Assembly (NCBI GenBank): GCA_964595185.1
Contig: CAZQOL010000003.1
Location: forward strand, 1-30,985
From: an uncultured Candidatus Saccharibacteria bacterium
GTDB lineage: Bacteria > Patescibacteriota > Minisyncoccia > Phycocordibacterales > UBA9973
DNA: 30,985 bases
Direction of reading: 5' to 3'
Part shown: piece by piece, positions 4,691 to 10,270 of the stretch
Numbering within the stretch: the first letter of the stretch is position 1
Layout: the number at the start of each line of letters is the position of its first letter
The notes under the pieces: model-generated
The model's input: only the letters and a program-made list of their open reading frames with translations
Database searches by the model: none
Told to the model about the DNA's origin: nothing
Translations under genes and position numbers: made by a program

Positions 4691-6631
4691 CTATTCCCCG
4701 GAAAGTAATCGAAAGCGGAACGCTCTGAAATAACTAAATAATCTCTGAAAAAAATTGTTAAGTTTTTGAAAAAATAAATTTGGGCTTTCGTCTTTCTCAA
4801 TAAATACTCCACCCGCACTTGCCAAAAGGGCATTGTTCACTTCTTTTTTTTCATCAATAACATTCTTTTCTTCTTTTTTCTCTACAACTAAATTATTTTT
4901 TAAATTCTTAATATCTTGATTATCTATGGTTATTTTTTCGATTGGTATTTCTACTTGAACTGGTGCTTCAATTAATTCTACTAGTGTATCTTCTTTTTCA
5001 ACTGTCTCTTCATCTTCCTGTGGAGTAATAATTTCTTCCTTGTCAAAAGATTCTAAAATATCATTCCAAGACATTTTTAAAACTGCAGGAATTGCATAAG
5101 CTGTAGACCAAACACGCGATTCTATTGCCCCATCGTCTAATCCTCCATCTTCTTTTTGTTGGTTGGCTAAATATAAAATTGCTTTTTCAACTTCTGTCTC
5201 GTATGAACTATCTAGGGCTAAAGCTTGCACTGCCCAGCTTGTAGAAAAAGAGTTTCCAAAATCTCCATCATCATTTTGCTCTCCCAATAAATACAGTCCA
5301 GCTTTTTCAATAGTCTCACTTACTTCATTTAAATTTTTAAAATTCCAAAGAGCCTGAATAGCTGACGAAGTCAGATCAATGCTCTCCCATGAACCATCAG
5401 CTGACTGTTCTCTGATTATATATGCAACAACTTTTTTTATTATCTCATCGTTTTTAGAAAAACCAGCATGGGCTAAAACAATCAAACCAAAAATATCGTC
5501 ATTAATAAGTGAATCATCGCCAATCTGCTGGCCATCAAATGCATCTGTTATTTTTTTAACATAATTTGTATTAGTTTCATTGTATGGATTTATGCCAAGA
5601 GACATCATGGCCATAATATGTCTCTCGTAGTCTGTAATGACGGATGATCCGAATTCATTATTAATAATACGATCATGAATCTTAGATTTTAATAAGTCCG
5701 CCTCATCACTAGAAGCACTAGCAATAGCCACCCAATCTGTATACATATCATTTTGGAATGAACCATCAGAATTTTGGTTGGCTAATAAGAATGAGATTGC
5801 CTTTTGAATTGAAAAAAATAATTCCGGGGTTGATCCTCCTCCACTTCCTCCTCCTGAGGAGGTTTCCACAACTTCAAAATTGACAGTCGGCCAATAATAA
5901 GAAAATCCATTATCATCAACTCTTATTCCGGCACTGTATGAACCAATAGGTATAGTAGAAAAAACTTTTTGTCCATTTTCATCTACCATACCTGATTGTA
6001 TTTCAATCGGATTGTATGGATCATCGGGATTAACTTTAGTGATTCCAACTGTCACTCCAGTTTTTACAAGCCATTGGTTATTTTCAAAATCATATTTCTC
6101 TGTAGAGACTGTTAAATCCTCAGATGTATCAATAGAACTTGCGCTTAATAAAATCCTATCGGTTTGGCCAAAAAATAAATAAATATTTTCACCTCCCGAA
6201 AGAATATTTTTATCCATCCCAACTGTCGGATAATATCCATCAACAACATACTGCCATTCATAACAAAGGGGTTCAGATTCTCCGGAAGTTATGCAGTTAA
6301 GCAAAAAGGCCCCAAATGATTCATTGTAACTAAAGTCTGAAATAGAAAATGAATCATCTTCCTGATCAAGAGTATAAAGCAAACCCAAGACACTTTGATT
6401 ACTTATTTCGTGCCCAGAAATTTCAACCATCTCTTGTACCTCAGGAAATAAAATTTTCCCGTCATATATAATGTTATCTCCATTTCGAATGGTAATTTTA
6501 TTTTCAACAGTAGGAGGTATCACTATCTCGGGCTCCCCGGGCTCAATCTCAGATTCAATAATTTCAGCAAAAACCAAATTAGGCCCCAGAAACATGACAC
6601 TCAAAATAAATATAACAAATATTTTTTTCAT
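4691..6631 (-). CDS. Exported protein: N-terminal DUF4430-like domain, Ig-like linker, prenyltransferase-repeat alpha/alpha barrel; putative cobalamin-binding protein
   Basis: Signal peptide; WQYVVDGYYPTVGMDKNILSGGENI resembles DUF4430; GGGSGGG linker; repeats such as LLANQNSDGSF, IIREQSADGSW, LLGEQNDDGDF, LANQQKEDGGL; lies downstream of the cobalamin riboswitch. Confidence 0.75.
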   Translation of the reverse strand: MKKIFVIFILSVMFLGPNLVFAEIIESEIEPGEPEIVIPPTVENKITIRNGDNIIYDGKILFPEVQEMVEISGHEISNQSVLGLLYTLDQEDDSFSISDFSYNESFGAFLLNCITSGESEPLCYEWQYVVDGYYPTVGMDKNILSGGENIYLFFGQTDRILLSASSIDTSEDLTVSTEKYDFENNQWLVKTGVTVGITKVNPDDPYNPIEIQSGMVDENGQKVFSTIPIGSYSAGIRVDDNGFSYYWPTVNFEVVETSSGGGSGGGSTPELFFSIQKAISFLLANQNSDGSFQNDMYTDWVAIASASSDEADLLKSKIHDRIINNEFGSSVITDYERHIMAMMSLGINPYNETNTNYVKKITDAFDGQQIGDDSLINDDIFGLIVLAHAGFSKNDEIIKKVVAYIIREQSADGSWESIDLTSSAIQALWNFKNLNEVSETIEKAGLYLLGEQNDDGDFGNSFSTSWAVQALALDSSYETEVEKAILYLANQQKEDGGLDDGAIESRVWSTAYAIPAVLKMSWNDILESFDKEEIITPQEDEETVEKEDTLVELIEAPVQVEIPIEKITIDNQDIKNLKNNLVVEKKEEKNVIDEKKEVNNALLASAGGVFIEKDESPNLFFQKLNNFFQRLFSYFRAFRFRLLSGE

Positions 6632-6635
6632 AATT

Positions 6636-7139
6636 TTATTTCAATTCCCATTTAATAATATCTCCCCCTTTTAAAATATATTCCGACACTCCAATTGTGG
6701 CTTCTTCCCCATTCACATAATAAAGCCAATATTTTCCCCCTCCCCCTTCCATATTATTTATTTTATCTATAAAAATCCCCAGGGAGGGATACTCTTTATA
6801 AGAAAAAGTAAAATTATTTTCTTTGTTTTTTTGTAAATTCTCCATTACCTTGTAAACACTGTCATTTTCTTTAATCGCTACTTCATATTTTTTTTCGAAA
6901 ACAATTAAATTTACTTTCTCTTCTGCTTTTTCATCTTCTGTATTTAAAGAAGAGGATGCCCCAGATAGAGGCTTCGCCTCTATCTGGGGCGAAATCATCA
7001 CAGATAAAGTCTTTGTCTCCTGTGTTGGTTGAGTTTCTTCTTTTTTTATCTGTAGATAAGACAAAAAATAAACAAAACAAATTATAATAATCAGAATTGG
7101 AAATGAAACTATTAAAATATTTTTTTTATTTTTTAACAT
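6636..7139 (-). CDS. Membrane-anchored DUF4430 (transcobalamin C-terminal-like) protein
   Basis: N-terminal TM helix; LGIFIDKINN...GKYWLYYVNGEEATIGVSEYILKGGDIIKWE is the DUF4430 signature. Start moved to Met25 (7139) because the listed extension runs through the riboswitch expression platform. Confidence 0.85.
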   Translation of the reverse strand: MLKNKKNILIVSFPILIIIICFVYFLSYLQIKKEETQPTQETKTLSVMISPQIEAKPLSGASSSLNTEDEKAEEKVNLIVFEKKYEVAIKENDSVYKVMENLQKNKENNFTFSYKEYPSLGIFIDKINNMEGGGGKYWLYYVNGEEATIGVSEYILKGGDIIKWELK

Positions 7140-7175
7140 AAATATAAAACCCTCCGGCTCAAGCGGGAGGGTCTT
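7140..7175 (-). terminator. Riboswitch expression-platform hairpin (terminator and/or SD sequestrator)
   Basis: Minus strand AAGACCCTCC-c-GC-ttga-GC-c-GGAGGGTTTT followed by atattt then ATG; the GGAGGG arm is 10 nt before the start codon. Confidence 0.65.
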
Positions 7176-7216
7176 ATCCAAATATATAAAATATTCTCCT
7201 GCTCGGGACACACCCT

Positions 7217-7335
7217 TGTATTAAGACCGGACTTGTCTCTTTCGACCTAAGTCGGAGAGCTTTACCGTTGCGGCACAGTGGAGGAATTTATGCTGTCGCT
7301 CGCGAGCGACAGCATGAACCTCACTTCCAAATACA
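7217..7335 (-). ncRNA. Cobalamin (B12) riboswitch aptamer
   Basis: Minus strand: P1 TGTATT/AATACA; GGAAG; P4 GAGG...CCTC; ACTGTGCCGCAACGGTAA (B12-box-like RCTG..CC.C.RC.GTRA); accessory hairpin; AAGTCCGG (RAGYCRG). Context is nrdJ, an ECF S-component and DUF4430 genes. Confidence 0.8.
7290..7315. repeat. Perfect 26-bp palindrome ATGCTGTCGCTCGCGAGCGACAGCAT
   Basis: The sequence equals its own reverse complement; it sits inside the riboswitch L4 loop. Confidence 0.95.
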
Positions 7336-7358
7336 TTGGTTTAAATTTTAAAATACAA

Positions 7359-7889
7359 CTAACTAACTACTGCAATCCTATTCTTTCTTTGGCTTGCTGT
7401 CGCACGGACAGAAGTTGCGACTAACCATTTCTCAATCACTGGTGATAGCACTATAGCAAACGAAACATTCGAGAGCAAGTGCAAAACCGTAAATGGAATC
7501 TGTCCGATCAAAGAACCCATGAAGGATTGATTAAAAAACAACGGGCCAATAGTTAATCCTGTTATTGCATCATAAAAGATTGTTGCAACAACAGCATAAC
7601 TTGCATAACTCATCCAGCCAGTTCGATTTTTGAAAAAATATGATGCACCTATTCCTAGTAATCCATAAGCGACAGCCGTGACTAAAGTCCAAATACCAAT
7701 TCCAGATGTTATCGAATCAAATAAAACAATACTTAAAAAACCAAAAGCAAATGCCATTATCTTTCCAGAAGTTTTACCCAGGGGCATGATGACTGCCATT
7801 ATTGGTTCAACATTTGGGGCTCGAAAAGGTAAAAGCCTCATTAAAAATACAGACAAAAATATAACGATGTATTTAAACTGTTTATTCAT
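7359..7889 (-). CDS. ECF transporter S-component, CbrT-like (putative cobalamin uptake)
   Basis: About six TM helices in 176 aa; RLLPFRAPNVEPI...LG...G resembles the PN(I/V)xP motif of CbrT-type S-components; lies between nrdJ and the B12 riboswitch. Confidence 0.7.
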   Translation of the reverse strand: MNKQFKYIVIFLSVFLMRLLPFRAPNVEPIMAVIMPLGKTSGKIMAFAFGFLSIVLFDSITSGIGIWTLVTAVAYGLLGIGASYFFKNRTGWMSYASYAVVATIFYDAITGLTIGPLFFNQSFMGSLIGQIPFTVLHLLSNVSFAIVLSPVIEKWLVATSVRATASQRKNRIAVVS

Positions 7890-7928: not shown

Positions 7929-10270
7929 TTATACTATATCACAAACACCTGAAACACAAGCGAGTTCTCTCTTTGCTTCTGTCTCATCTTTTAATTCATA
8001 AGTAATTATTTTTGAAAAATCAAAATCTGGCATTTTGCTTATTAACTCTTTGTATGTTTTTTCATCAATTGCTTCATATGGTGCTAATTGATAAACATGA
8101 TTACTTCGTGGTAAGAAAGACAAACCTCCAACTATATCCCAGTTTTGATAAAGCCAATGTGCCACTTGTATCCATTCATTTTCCCCAACTGAAATAGTCA
8201 CAGATGGGTTATGTTCGGTATAATTTACTTTTACAATTTTCCAATGTTCAAGTTGGTCAATAGCCGAAATATCGTCCTTACAAATTGCCCCCTCTGGTGC
8301 TTTCATCGGAAACTCCAAAACAAAAGTATTAGCTGTATCATGTGTCTGCCCTACTTCAGGATGATAAGGGACACCCTGGTCTTTCATCATTTTAAATAAT
8401 GAGTCGGTTGCAGAAATTCGAATACGACGAATATAGTATGGAGCATGTCGTGGGTGCATTCCCGAAGAACAATCAACAGTCTGAGAAACTGTTCCTGAAG
8501 GTTTTACTGCCGTGATACATGTGGATTCACTAATTCCAAATCTCTTTGAATATATTTTATTGATACGGATAGATTCAAGTTTAAGTTTTTTTAACATCTC
8601 TGCATCACGAGAAAGTTTTGAATCCCACTGACCTGTAACCGAAACTCCCAACAATCTTTCTTCGTCACAGTTCTCACGCCATTCCTTACCTAAATATCCA
8701 AATTTTGTTAATGTCGCTTGATATGTTCCTAGAATAGTTGCAATTCGAACTTTTCTCATTAAATCTTCTTCGGTATCTTCACTTCGAGCAACTACTTCAG
8801 ATAAATTACAAAATTGTCTTGAGCGTAGGATTATTTCACCACAGGGGTTTGTTCCCATCTCACCAATATAGTCAGCTGATTTTTCTAATCTTCTTTTTGG
8901 TAATGTTTTATATAAAGATTCTCGATTAAATATTCCTCGCTCTCCACTGCCTGATTCCATTAAAGCAATCCACTCTTTGAGAAATTGAGTTTCGGTAGGT
9001 TTTGTATTGTAAACTGCTGAGTTGTTAGCAAGCATCCGCTGGCCTTCGTTGACCCAAAATTGGCCATTCTTCGAATCACGCATATCTTGATCATCTAAAT
9101 CAGACAATGAAATAAGGGCGCTTCGGCGAACTCCTCCTGAAACCACACACTCTCCTATTTTACAAATAATATCATGAGCATCAATATTGCGAAGATGTCT
9201 TCCTTGACGACGTAAAATTCTTTCCCGGGTAAATCCAAGTAAATTTATTAAAGGCTGAGGGCCGGAAGATTTTCCTCCCATTATTTTAAGTCTTGCTCCA
9301 GCAGGGCGAAGTAAAGAGAAATCAAAATCAACATCGTTACCCTCAAACCAGGTCTTCATTCCATGCACAAAGGCATCTGCCCATCCTTCTTTTGTGTCAG
9401 GAACAACGTAAGTTGGCAATTTTTTATTTGTCTGAATTTTAATTTGAGGAAGTGATTGAATATTTTTACTTTCAACGGAAAACCGACTCCTGTTCCACAC
9501 ATTGAAATATAAATAATGTCTCCAAAATCTTGGAAAGTAGAAGGAGCCACAAATGAACAGTTGTAAGCACAGACATTTGTTTTTTCCGCCGCCGCTCCAG
9601 CAAATTGTAATAATCGCATCGAAGGCATTGCTTCTTGTTTTAAAATTGCCTCACGAACTTCTTGGTATTCACTTTCTTTCAGTTTATCTCCAAGTTTACC
9701 TTTCATAAAATTTATATATCGGTCAACAGTCTCGATCCAAGTCTCACGTCTTCCCTCTTCTTCAATCCATTTTGCATAACTTCGATAGTAAACGAATTCA
9801 GAAAGTGGATTTCTAAAATATTTTTTACTCTCATCAGTTAATTTTTTTACACGCTCCGGCACTGAAATACCCTGAGCCCGAAGAGAAGCTCTTTCTTGTC
9901 TATATAAAATATAATGCTTTGATGTAATAGTATAGTCTGAAAGCATCAATTGCTTCTCAACAACATCTTGCACCGTCTCCACCGTTGGCGTAAAACCTTT
10001 ATTTTCTTTAACTATACTAGCGATTTCCATGGCAACTTTTTTGGCCACCATTTCTGCTTCTTTCAATGACCCTTCCCCACTAGTAAGCATTGCTTTATTA
10101 ATAGCATTCGTAATTTTTCCAATATCAAAAGGAACGATTTCTCCATCTCTTTTTTGAACGCCCTTAATAAAATAATTCTTGCTAACTTTTTTTAAAGTTT
10201 TTTCGCTTATATTTTTTTCTTTTGCAACGACCATTTTTTTGGCACCAGACATTTTCTTTTGTGAAGACAT
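7929..10270 (-). CDS. nrdJ: Class II (adenosylcobalamin-dependent) ribonucleotide reductase, monomeric RTPR type with N-terminal ATP-cone; 1-nt frameshift at 9479-9482
   Basis: ORFs 9356-10270 (ATP-cone VQKRDG..VPFD..KI, AYNCSF, CGTGVGF) and 7929-9500 (SGGVRRSA, NPCGEI, FCNLSE, VKPSGTVS, C-terminal CVSGVC) join as GVGF-SVE if one T is added to GGTTTTCC, giving 780 aa. Confidence 0.9.

Follow-up and report, generated by a model that had tools for sequence, protein, structure and literature searches.

In about a dozen genomes of Patescibacteria, the apex of the L4 loop of the AdoCbl riboswitch is occupied by hairpins, which differ between lineages. In the genome under study (G000; 823 kb, 91% complete, 33% GC) this hairpin is a perfect palindrome that has been inserted into the loop; the same site is empty in most congeneric orthologues, related copies of the palindrome are dispersed in this and other genomes, and the changes that separate its closest counterparts are compensated on the opposite arm. 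The window, i.e. the whole stretch of DNA that we analyzed, is an entire contig of this genome (C3) with a length of 30,985 nt. We consider it likely that the palindrome is a REP-like insertion that was tolerated at a permissive L4 apex, and that the AdoCbl riboswitch that carries it is probably a working one.

The riboswitch and its genes

At gathering thresholds a tRNA is the sole Rfam match in the window. A sensitive Rfam scan placed the AdoCbl riboswitch model RF01482 on positions 7190-7354 of the minus strand, with 33.1 bits (E 2.4e-4) and a gathering score of 50 for this model, and a weak match to RF00174 (Cobalamin), which together with RF01689 belongs to the same clan (CL00101), overlaps this region. 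G000 falls below the gathering score because of insertions in L4 and P6: in the RF01482 alignment it has 33 nt where the L4 of the model has 7 nt, and 16 nt where the P6 tip of the model has 4. Note that the orthologue of G030, which is without the L4 insert, reaches 61.1 bits on the same model and lies above the gathering score. A covariance model built from the alignment of the genus orthologues (R1) found the riboswitch in 60 of the 93 genomes of the genus and gave 105.9 bits for G000 itself. When the canonical cobalamin fold with its 27 pairs was applied to the orthologues, 96.5% of the cells were paired, compared to 43-57% in slid controls; 12 pairs have changed on both sides, and the observed covariation score was reached by none of 500 shuffles. 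P4 is 100% paired across the orthologues, with a closing pair that covaries between GC, AU and GU, and all 50 invariant aptamer columns are retained in G000. On fold and gene context, we regard the element as a true AdoCbl riboswitch belonging to the RF01482 type.

The aptamer extends over 7192..7354 on the minus strand, as do all features of the window given below. In common with RF01482 AdoCbl aptamers it has, by the Rfam alignment, an outer helix, P4, P5 (UGU-GCC-GCA), P6 with the AAGUC box and the B12-box-like sequence AAGUCCGG, and the P13-like hairpin UCCCGAGCAGGA, and it is accompanied by B12-related genes. Unlike them, G000 has the 27-nt insertion in L4 and, at the tip of the P6 extension, a small extra hairpin of 12 nt that was recognized in the alignment (CGAC-UUAG-GUCG, 7243..7254). 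Within the genus alignment this P6-tip hairpin is common only to G000 and G102, the carriers of the same L4 palindrome family.

In the stretch from the aptamer to the start codon, fold prediction yields a terminator-like hairpin (ACCCUCC...GGAGGGU, followed by UUUUAUAUUU; 7141..7174), whose 3' arm GGAGGG is RBS-like and ends up approximately 10 nt before the ATG at 7139-7137. Hairpin and T-run are conserved at this place in the orthologues. A simple promoter and terminator scan of positions 7050-7500 flagged nothing, presumably because the loop of the hairpin exceeds the limit of the scan, so that the terminator call rests on folding and conservation. The first regulated gene (6636..7139) encodes a membrane or exported, transcobalamin-like DUF4430 protein (PF14478, E 5e-14) and sits downstream of the riboswitch in most relatives. 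The second one (4691..6631) encodes an exported protein of 646 aa with a Cobalamin_bind / prenyltransferase-like alpha-alpha barrel (PF01122 and PF13243); a search for related loci with this protein as the query gave no matches. On the upstream side, an ECF S-component-like gene (7359..7889; a weak PF07155 match with E 7e-4, under the cut-off) ends 5 nt before the riboswitch match, and a gene for a class II (B12-dependent) ribonucleotide reductase is found there as well. This gene neighbourhood is B12-related. Going by the class of the riboswitch, we regard it as probably an OFF switch for a B12-capture operon consisting of the DUF4430 gene and the gene for the transcobalamin-like exported protein, in which switching off would proceed via the terminator and the RBS-sequestering hairpin.

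The insertion in the P4 hairpin

On the minus strand, positions 7322-7281 read GAGG-UUC-[AUGCUGUCGCUCGCGAGCGACAGCAU]-AAAUU-CCUC, and the bracketed stretch 7315-7290 is a perfect 26-bp palindrome, just as a preliminary description of this DNA had it. The palindrome, ATGCTGTCGCTCGCGAGCGACAGCAT with the core GTCRCTCGCGAGYGAC, consists of 13+13 bp without spacer, and its arms have 62% GC versus 33% for the genome. By chance, a perfect palindrome of 26 nt has a probability of ~4^-13 per position, with ~0.01 expected per 823 kb, and the full 26-mer is unique in G000 at up to 3 mismatches. The same description had placed the palindrome in L4 of a cobalamin riboswitch, an assignment that is borne out by the RF01482 match and by the alignment of orthologues. 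In the P4 helix (7281..7324), GAGG 7322-7319 pairs with CCUC 7284-7281, U7323 is bulged and G7324-C7280 is the closing pair; the residues UUC 7318-7316 and AAAUU 7289-7285 represent, in the Rfam alignment, the two parts of a split T-loop.

In a BLAST comparison of the leader with 60 relatives, the matches break exactly at the palindrome. The first alignments had GAGG-U-NNRA-UU-CCUC in 16 of 16 orthologues, and a plain 7-nt loop of the T-loop type (U-N-N-R-A-U-U) is present in 51 of the 61 genus orthologues aligned. With these empty sites, two earlier proposals, that L4 is T-loop-like and that the palindrome is an insertion, are both supported, and a covarying stem of this kind is not common to the relatives as a whole. 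A further proposal, that removing the palindrome restores the T-loop, holds only in part. The orthologues do have the T-loop, but removal of the 26 nt leaves a loop of 8 nt, GGTTCAAATTCC, while the loop of the empty orthologues has 7. The insertion is therefore 27 nt in length, the palindrome plus one base, and occupies 7290..7316 in alignments of 17 and 61 orthologues, with boundaries that are ambiguous by 1-2 nt. In G000 the T-loop feature of 5 nt plus 2 bulged nt is not intact, as the 26-bp helix splits the loop and only U1 and the A5-U-U flanks are left.

That the palindrome could be an artefact of assembly or library preparation, for instance through a chimeric inverted read or adapter sequence, is extremely improbable. 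Amplification chimeras can indeed yield palindromes, and the contig of another genome, G005, breaks at this very site: its upstream gene is 98% identical to that of G000, the contig ends 12 nt into an apparent insert of the type found in G013, and the 3' half of the riboswitch is absent from that assembly. However, an independent Logan assembly of the probable source run (X1), made with a different assembler, reproduces the palindrome exactly, in a contig that spans 7260-7455 without a difference. Contigs from another sample of the same study (X2) and from activated sludge in another study (X3), which represent relatives with a few percent divergence, include the whole palindrome; in them the paired changes 7292 G>C and 7313 C>G give ATCCT...AGGAT and again a perfect palindrome. 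In addition G102, an independent genome, has a homologous palindrome, and related copies exist in nine genomes. In a further run, X4, the hairpin at this place is more divergent, and one X3 contig from a relative has the empty site; the sequence is found in runs from metagenomes of wastewater and activated sludge. To our knowledge no adapter or linker sequence matches the palindrome, and given contigs from several samples the question of such an origin is moot. The palindrome is real.

As RNA, the insert is predicted to form its own hairpin of 11-13 bp at the tip of P4, with -17.4 kcal/mol. Two to three unpaired nt flank the insert helix on each side. For P4, predicted pairing probabilities of 0.95-0.97 in the presence of the insert compare with 0.98 in its absence, and the remaining predicted fold is the same, in line with the earlier suggestion that the insert folds out as a stem of its own. 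Every change of the palindrome among G000, the X2/X3 strains and G102 is matched on the opposite arm, including a G:C to C:G swap, and the insert of G102, with three compensatory pair changes relative to G000, is still a perfect palindrome. The matched changes could stem from selection on an RNA or DNA hairpin, but they could also be due to arm-to-arm templated correction of quasipalindromes, which by way of template switching is a known mutational mechanism.

Hairpins at the L4 position of other genomes

Nine further genomes of the genus have a helix at exactly the L4 position of G000, bringing the number of insert-bearing sequences to 10 in the 61-sequence alignment. With the hairpin in brackets, the stretch reads TTC[ATCCTGTCATTCGCGAATGACAGGAT]AAATT in G102, TTC[ACCCTAGTCTGTTTAATCAGACGGGT]ACATC in G083, TTC[ATCCTAATCTATGTAAATAGACGGAT]ACATT in G068, TTCC[ATTCCGCCAAGGCGGGAT]AAATT in G079, TTT[ACCCGCGCCTTAGGCGGGGT]GCATT in G073 and TTC[TTGATTTATTAAATCAA]AATT in G069; G101, G105 and G013 have imperfect hairpins of 31-34 nt. 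All ten inserts of the genus are predicted to fold as a 4-bp P4, an internal loop of 3 x 4-5 nt and a hairpin of their own. In every one of them, G-U is retained 5' of the hairpin and A-U-(U/C)-C 3' of it. Beyond the genus, an L4 hairpin was found in 0 of 16 sequences of an order-level sample and in 2 of 21 of a phylum-level sample (G308 and G356); the plain 7-nt L4 loop is present in 16 of 16 and 19 of 21, respectively. Other long insertions in the order-level sample fall in the variable P6 extension.

The hairpins are 17-34 nt in length and belong to at least four classes that are unrelated by sequence: the 26-nt class, a CCGCC/GGCGG class, the AT-rich hairpin of G069, and long UGA-flanked hairpins. 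The 26-nt class comprises G000 and G102. The hairpins of G068 and G083, also of 26 nt, share length, ATCCT/GGAT ends and flanks, and judging by sequence they possibly share an origin with the G000 insert and have since diverged, instead of being events of their own. Similar hairpins, UUCCGCC..GGCGG(G)AA, are found in G079 and in G308, a member of a distant genus. Pattern searches with the hairpins of G079 and G073 in their own genomes gave only a few loosely similar GC hairpins that are possibly terminators. Note that the riboswitches of G105 and G013 are weaker or partly degenerate, with 60 and 35 bits on R1.

In the best tree built from the two proteins encoded downstream, the insert label changes nine times, and the well-supported branches force at least seven changes. 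We have rejected this as a count of independent gains. The number is unreliable as a number of events because the proteins evolve fast and the locus recombines, as is seen in G102, a filled genome that is almost identical to the empty G111 in the downstream region but has a riboswitch resembling that of G000.

Position 1 of the T-loop is always U and position 5 always A in the 51 empty orthologues, with free variation at positions 2-3. The insert is found at the apex of the loop, with the variable positions 2-3 on its 5' side and the conserved positions 4-5 on its 3' side. In the T-loops of tRNA, the corresponding place is the solvent-exposed outer corner. L4 is a 7-nt loop whose first 5 nt, together with 2 bulged nt, form a T-loop (PMC7367189; bioRxiv 10.1101/2022.12.26.521914), L4 T-loops have been described as universally conserved in these riboswitch classes (bioRxiv 10.1101/2022.12.26.521914), and in a solved structure of Cbl-II the P6 loop docks into L4 (PMC7367189). 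Insertions into UA-handle and T-loop motifs are restricted to defined points where they leave the key contacts untouched, and the U and the A of a UA handle cannot be connected directly by a regular helix (PMC2615604). The G000 hairpin resembles the T-loop/UA_handle scaffolds described by Jaeger et al. 2009 (PMC2615604), as well as expansion segments of the rRNA style, in that the key residues G-U ... A-U-U-C are kept and a helix is appended at a defined point. It is unlike the UA_handle scaffolds in that their documented insertion point is a bulge 3' of the A (PMC2615604), whereas the G000 helix lies between U1-N2-N3 and R4-A5. A literature search, with dedicated T-loop reviews outside it, returned no described helix insertion between U1-N2-N3 and R4-A5. 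A helix that enters between positions 3 and 4 rules out a contiguous classical 5-nt T-loop, a point that counts against the insert being a mere passenger.

The L4 position tolerates added helices, since other hairpins occupy the spot in about a dozen relatives, and with these hairpins unrelated to that of G000 the L4 apex appears to be a generally permissive site in Patescibacteria genomes. The simplest reading is that of a selection filter, by which hairpins would insert at many sites and persist at this one.

The palindrome family and the origin of the insertion

A search of the genome for the palindrome, as proposed in the preliminary description, uncovered a dispersed family of small palindromes, which we designate family A. 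Its 16-nt core, GTCGCTCGCGAGCGAC, is present in three copies in G000 (C3:7290, C61:1420 and C61:2861), and the two copies on C61 lie within 26-nt palindromes, ACCCCGTC(G/A)CTCGCGAG(C/T)GAC(G/A)GGGT. A degenerate form of the core was found in 9 of the 93 genomes of the genus, with 1-4 copies each, compared to a single genome for a reversed-pattern control. The outer arms differ between the copies yet stay complementary. Two copies lie in frame in miaA, one each in G000 and G115, and extend the protein by TPSLASDR at a position where at least 25 relatives have no insert; a third miaA copy, in G076, is located elsewhere in the gene, and other copies are found near secY, dnaX, clpP, mscL and tatD. 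Family A also occurs in RNA genes. In G000 and G064 it is in the D-loop region of a partial tRNA-Trp duplicate, which directly adjoins a GIY-YIG gene in G000 and neighbours a small ORF without Pfam match in G064, and the RNase P RNA of G116 has a family-A sequence as its P3 hairpin.

The idea that the element targets TTC^AAA T-loop-like sites did not hold up. TTCAAA is found in none of the empty riboswitch sites of the genus, and most other copies are in unrelated contexts. A flank pattern TTC...A(A/G)A is seen at the riboswitch, at the miaA copy of G000 and at the G064 copy in the tRNA-like fragment. No more than about 3-5 of about 13 loci have it, and one empty miaA site reads ATT TCA AAA; by sequence, such flanks cannot be separated from an AT-rich background or from a tail of the element itself.

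The family-A repeat is a short, dispersed, multi-copy palindrome, as is expected of a REP, with a copy number that is low for one. At the loci checked, no Y1_Tnp/RAYT gene or other transposase was found beside the family-A copies. Comparison of filled and empty sites revealed no target-site duplication, and there is no unpaired GTAG or CGTC tag, the palindrome being perfect from end to end with YGTC/GACR paired within the stem. We call family A REP-like rather than REP because it has no adjacent RAYT and no unpaired GTAG or CGTC tag, and because of the low copy number we infer its mobility only from dispersal and empty sites. With REPs and REPINs that are moved by RAYTs (Y1 HUH) it has in common that the palindromes are short, GC-rich and dispersed, that the same genomes hold RAYT-like genes, and that no target-site duplication is present; chemistry of the IS200/IS605 type makes none. 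It differs from them in having 1-4 copies per genome and no RAYT beside the copies, several of which are intragenic or inside RNA genes instead of extragenic. The REP superfamilies of Di Nocera et al. 2013 have an unpaired GTAG or CGTC tag and stems of 8-9 bp (PMC3733652), unlike family A, where YGTC...GACR is paired inside the stem, and membership in the CGTC-tagged superfamily, which by definition needs both tag and stem (PMC3733652), was rejected. We likewise rejected a MITE. MITEs have terminal inverted repeats, a target-site duplication and a length of 70-300 bp, whereas the insert has 27 nt and no duplication, and as a multi-copy element of G000 it does not qualify either, the 26-mer being unique with only the 16-nt core recurring (3 times).

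G000 contains several other GC-rich palindrome families and encodes two Y1_Tnp genes (IS200/IS605 TnpA / RAYT-type), one at C18:11304-11522, flanked by CCAGCCTTGCTGG, and one at C7:9822-10046, flanked by CAGATAGGGCTTTAAGCCCTATCTG. Each of the two is flanked by one palindrome family, which is a REPtron arrangement; the copies at the RAYT gene on C7 belong to family B. The number of Y1_Tnp genes is 3 in G102, 5 in G115 and 7 in G065, and at 11 of the 12 Y1_Tnp loci retrieved, GC-rich palindromes of families other than A lie close to the gene, mostly on both sides. In the window, a second, unrelated REP-like palindrome of family B2 (GCCCCAGATAGAGGCTTCGCCTCTATCTGGGGC, 6958..6990) lies in frame in the linker of the DUF4430 protein and encodes PQIEAKPLSG; similar peptides occur in relatives. 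Our literature search returned no paper that links RAYTs to Patescibacteria and none that links REPs to riboswitch aptamers.

Among the Rickettsia palindromic elements (RPE), RPE-1 has a length of roughly 100-150 bp. The RPE-like inserts found here are those in miaA and in the DUF4430 linker, and they resemble Rickettsia palindromic elements and intragenic REPs (PMC3733652; PMC1779305) as selfish-looking, in-frame palindromic insertions into conserved genes of reduced genomes. Unlike RPEs, the inserts here have 24-33 nt and are found in Patescibacteria, with one copy in a riboswitch aptamer. In frame and absent from orthologues, as for an RPE, is the family-A copy in miaA of G000 and G115, and not the riboswitch copy. 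In comparison with known systems, we are thus dealing with a known class of riboswitch that bears a REP-like or RPE-like insertion, the twist being the recurrent insertion of a helix at one T-loop position.

Spread at the DNA level is most likely, because the family is also found in miaA, in a tRNA-like fragment and in P3 of RNase P RNA. The L4 T-loop would then have received its 27-nt insertion in the form of a small hairpin element, and the insert would fold as a helix of its own, with the U1...A5-U-U residues and the P4 stem left intact. From the predicted fold, the riboswitch most likely still works, with the insert as a passenger; in this sense we infer the mode of mobility, a retained ligand response and the neutrality of the insert. 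Alternatively, the hairpin might have formed in place, with the small GAGG/CCTC inverted repeat as the site of template switching or snap-back synthesis, which we consider very unlikely. The insert does sit at the centre of an existing inverted repeat without a target-site duplication, and palindromes that remain perfect after divergence would fit arm-to-arm templated correction, but the 16-nt core with similar outer arms is present at two other loci of G000 and in eight other genomes, and the AT-rich local context cannot template a GC-rich sequence.

Two further alternatives concern the function of the riboswitch. One is that the extension of P4 is a selected, functional variant in which the added helix takes the place of the contact between L4 T-loop and receptor or remodels it, tunes ligand response or folding kinetics, or binds a protein. 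This seems unlikely to us, although the preliminary description had also offered a natural riboswitch variant and hairpins at the same position in nine further genomes of the genus and two of the phylum sample (10 of 61 and 2 of 21 sequences, respectively), with one shared geometry of P4, internal loop and helix, bear out that proposal in part, in a different sense. The stems that are kept by compensatory changes (G000 versus G102 versus X2/X3, and G068 versus G083) fit as well, as do the similar UUCCGCC..GGCGG(G)AA hairpins of G079 and the distant G308 and the changed P6 tip that G000 and G102 share, the P6 loop being docked into L4 in Cbl-II (PMC7367189). Nevertheless, the sequences, lengths (17-34 nt) and loops of the hairpins are unrelated between lineages, some 84% of the genus orthologues, near relatives included, do without a hairpin, the remaining genomes with an insert do not consistently show P6 changes alongside it, and the hairpin of G000 comes from a dispersed family that is present in unrelated genes. 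The other alternative, that the insertion has disabled the riboswitch, would leave a pseudo-riboswitch with the operon constitutively on or off, persisting either as a recent event or with regulation being dispensable, and strikes us as rather improbable. A contiguous T-loop of a kind described as universally conserved (bioRxiv 10.1101/2022.12.26.521914) is interrupted, the perfect palindrome is compatible with a recent event, and G105 and G013 combine L4 inserts with degenerate aptamers. Yet the insert is common to two species-level genomes, G000 and G102, and to strains in other samples, the insert-bearing aptamers have diverged elsewhere with all invariant core positions retained, and both expression platform and downstream ORFs are intact.

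We thus prefer a tolerated REP-like insertion in a riboswitch that probably works. Ultra-small CPR genomes carry active-looking REP/RAYT systems together with tiny palindromes that invade protein genes in frame and structured RNA genes. An insert of this kind lowers a real riboswitch under the Rfam threshold (33 versus 61 bits), so that such variants would systematically be missed by annotation. It is a doubtful proposition that insertions do more than survive at the L4 apex in AdoCbl riboswitches of Patescibacteria and that mobile DNA in hairpin form integrates there preferentially, at a hot spot in the strict sense. If so, palindromes would prefer the tips of existing hairpins in RNA genes, such as L4, the tRNA D-loop and P3 of RNase P, and Y1 transposases would possibly move them as single-stranded hairpin DNA; hairpins would be exchanged between species by recombination, with palindromy kept by arm-to-arm templated repair, and as a sub-case the added helix would let the riboswitch make a new tertiary contact or respond to a second regulatory input. 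The recurrent insertions amount to a natural experiment on RNA modularity, in which a helix has repeatedly split a loop that makes a tertiary contact and that has been called universally conserved for cobalamin and FMN riboswitches, and the natural L4 variants are ready-made material for testing what the L4 T-loop needs.

Family A palindromes in structural RNA genes

Copies of family A, the palindrome family of the insertion in L4, the T-loop of the adenosylcobalamin riboswitch, were also found within genes for other structured RNAs. On contig C61 of the source genome (locus L023) the tRNA-Trp gene lies at 2500-2571 on the minus strand, and in the surrounding region 2279-2899 its 5' part is partially duplicated upstream of it, with a family A palindrome placed within the D-loop region of this duplicate. 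A GIY-YIG gene (2584-2838) is located directly after the palindrome-bearing partial duplicate, and a GC-rich stretch at 2279-2470 terminates in a tRNA-like 3' end. A homologous arrangement was found in the related genome G064 (L024). Candidate explanations for this unit are a mobile GIY-YIG element, a split tRNA or an intron-bearing tRNA. In the RNase P RNA of a second relative, G116 (L032, contig C1, 1291-1647), the hairpin of helix P3 is itself a family A palindrome, CCCCGUCGCUCUCGAGUGACAGGG, that is identical in 22 of 24 positions to the copy in miaA of the source genome.

In-frame inserts and RAYT genes

The miaA gene of the source genome (L023, 634-1599) was compared to loci L045, L053 and L056. 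The loop preceding the conserved MIEK..WHYAKRQ motif of MiaA is an insertion hot spot: in the source genome it holds two adjoining inserts, LSRRAKADKM, whose coding DNA is a CGCC..GGCG hairpin, and TPSLASDR, and different inserts occupy the same loop in G012, G001 and G043. In the window, a REP-like palindrome of the unrelated family B2, GCCCCAGATAGAGGCTTCGCCTCTATCTGGGGC, is found in-frame in the DUF4430 gene (6958-6990), within its linker, where it yields the peptide PQIEAKPLSG; several relatives have similar peptides, QIE(A/S)K(P/A)LS, in the same linker.

Our literature search returned no paper linking RAYT transposases to Patescibacteria. The source genome contains two Y1_Tnp (RAYT/IS200-type) genes, C18:11304-11522 and C7:9822-10046 (loci L244 and L245), both flanked by GC-rich palindromes of a separate family for each gene, and this is the architecture of a REPtron. 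Seven Y1_Tnp genes were counted in G065, five in G115 and three in G102, and nearly all of those examined have their own GC-rich palindromes nearby.

The riboswitch locus in the window and in relatives

The class II (B12-dependent) ribonucleotide reductase of the window appears as two overlapping ORFs, the first (7929-9500) with ATP-cone and RNR_alpha domains and the second (9356-10270) with the RNR-II insertion and barrel domains. This arrangement may stem from a frameshift or a sequencing error, or the split may be genuine.

The riboswitches of G230 (L204) and G119 (L213), which represent two other genera, have palindromic insertions of 45-50 nt in their P6 extension, the part of the riboswitch that usually varies. 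The closest relative upstream of the riboswitch, G005, shows 98% identity, and its contig C19 (L014, 1-56) ends at L4, breaking off 12 nt past GAGGT with GACCCTCCTTCG, a sequence similar to the beginning of the long imperfect hairpin that fills L4 in G013-type riboswitches. Note that the remainder of this riboswitch is absent from the G005 assembly. In G102 (L220, L4 filled) and G111 (L079, L4 empty) the downstream proteins are near-identical, but the riboswitches are clearly different, and that of G102 resembles the one of the source genome. This discrepancy indicates recombination inside the riboswitch locus.
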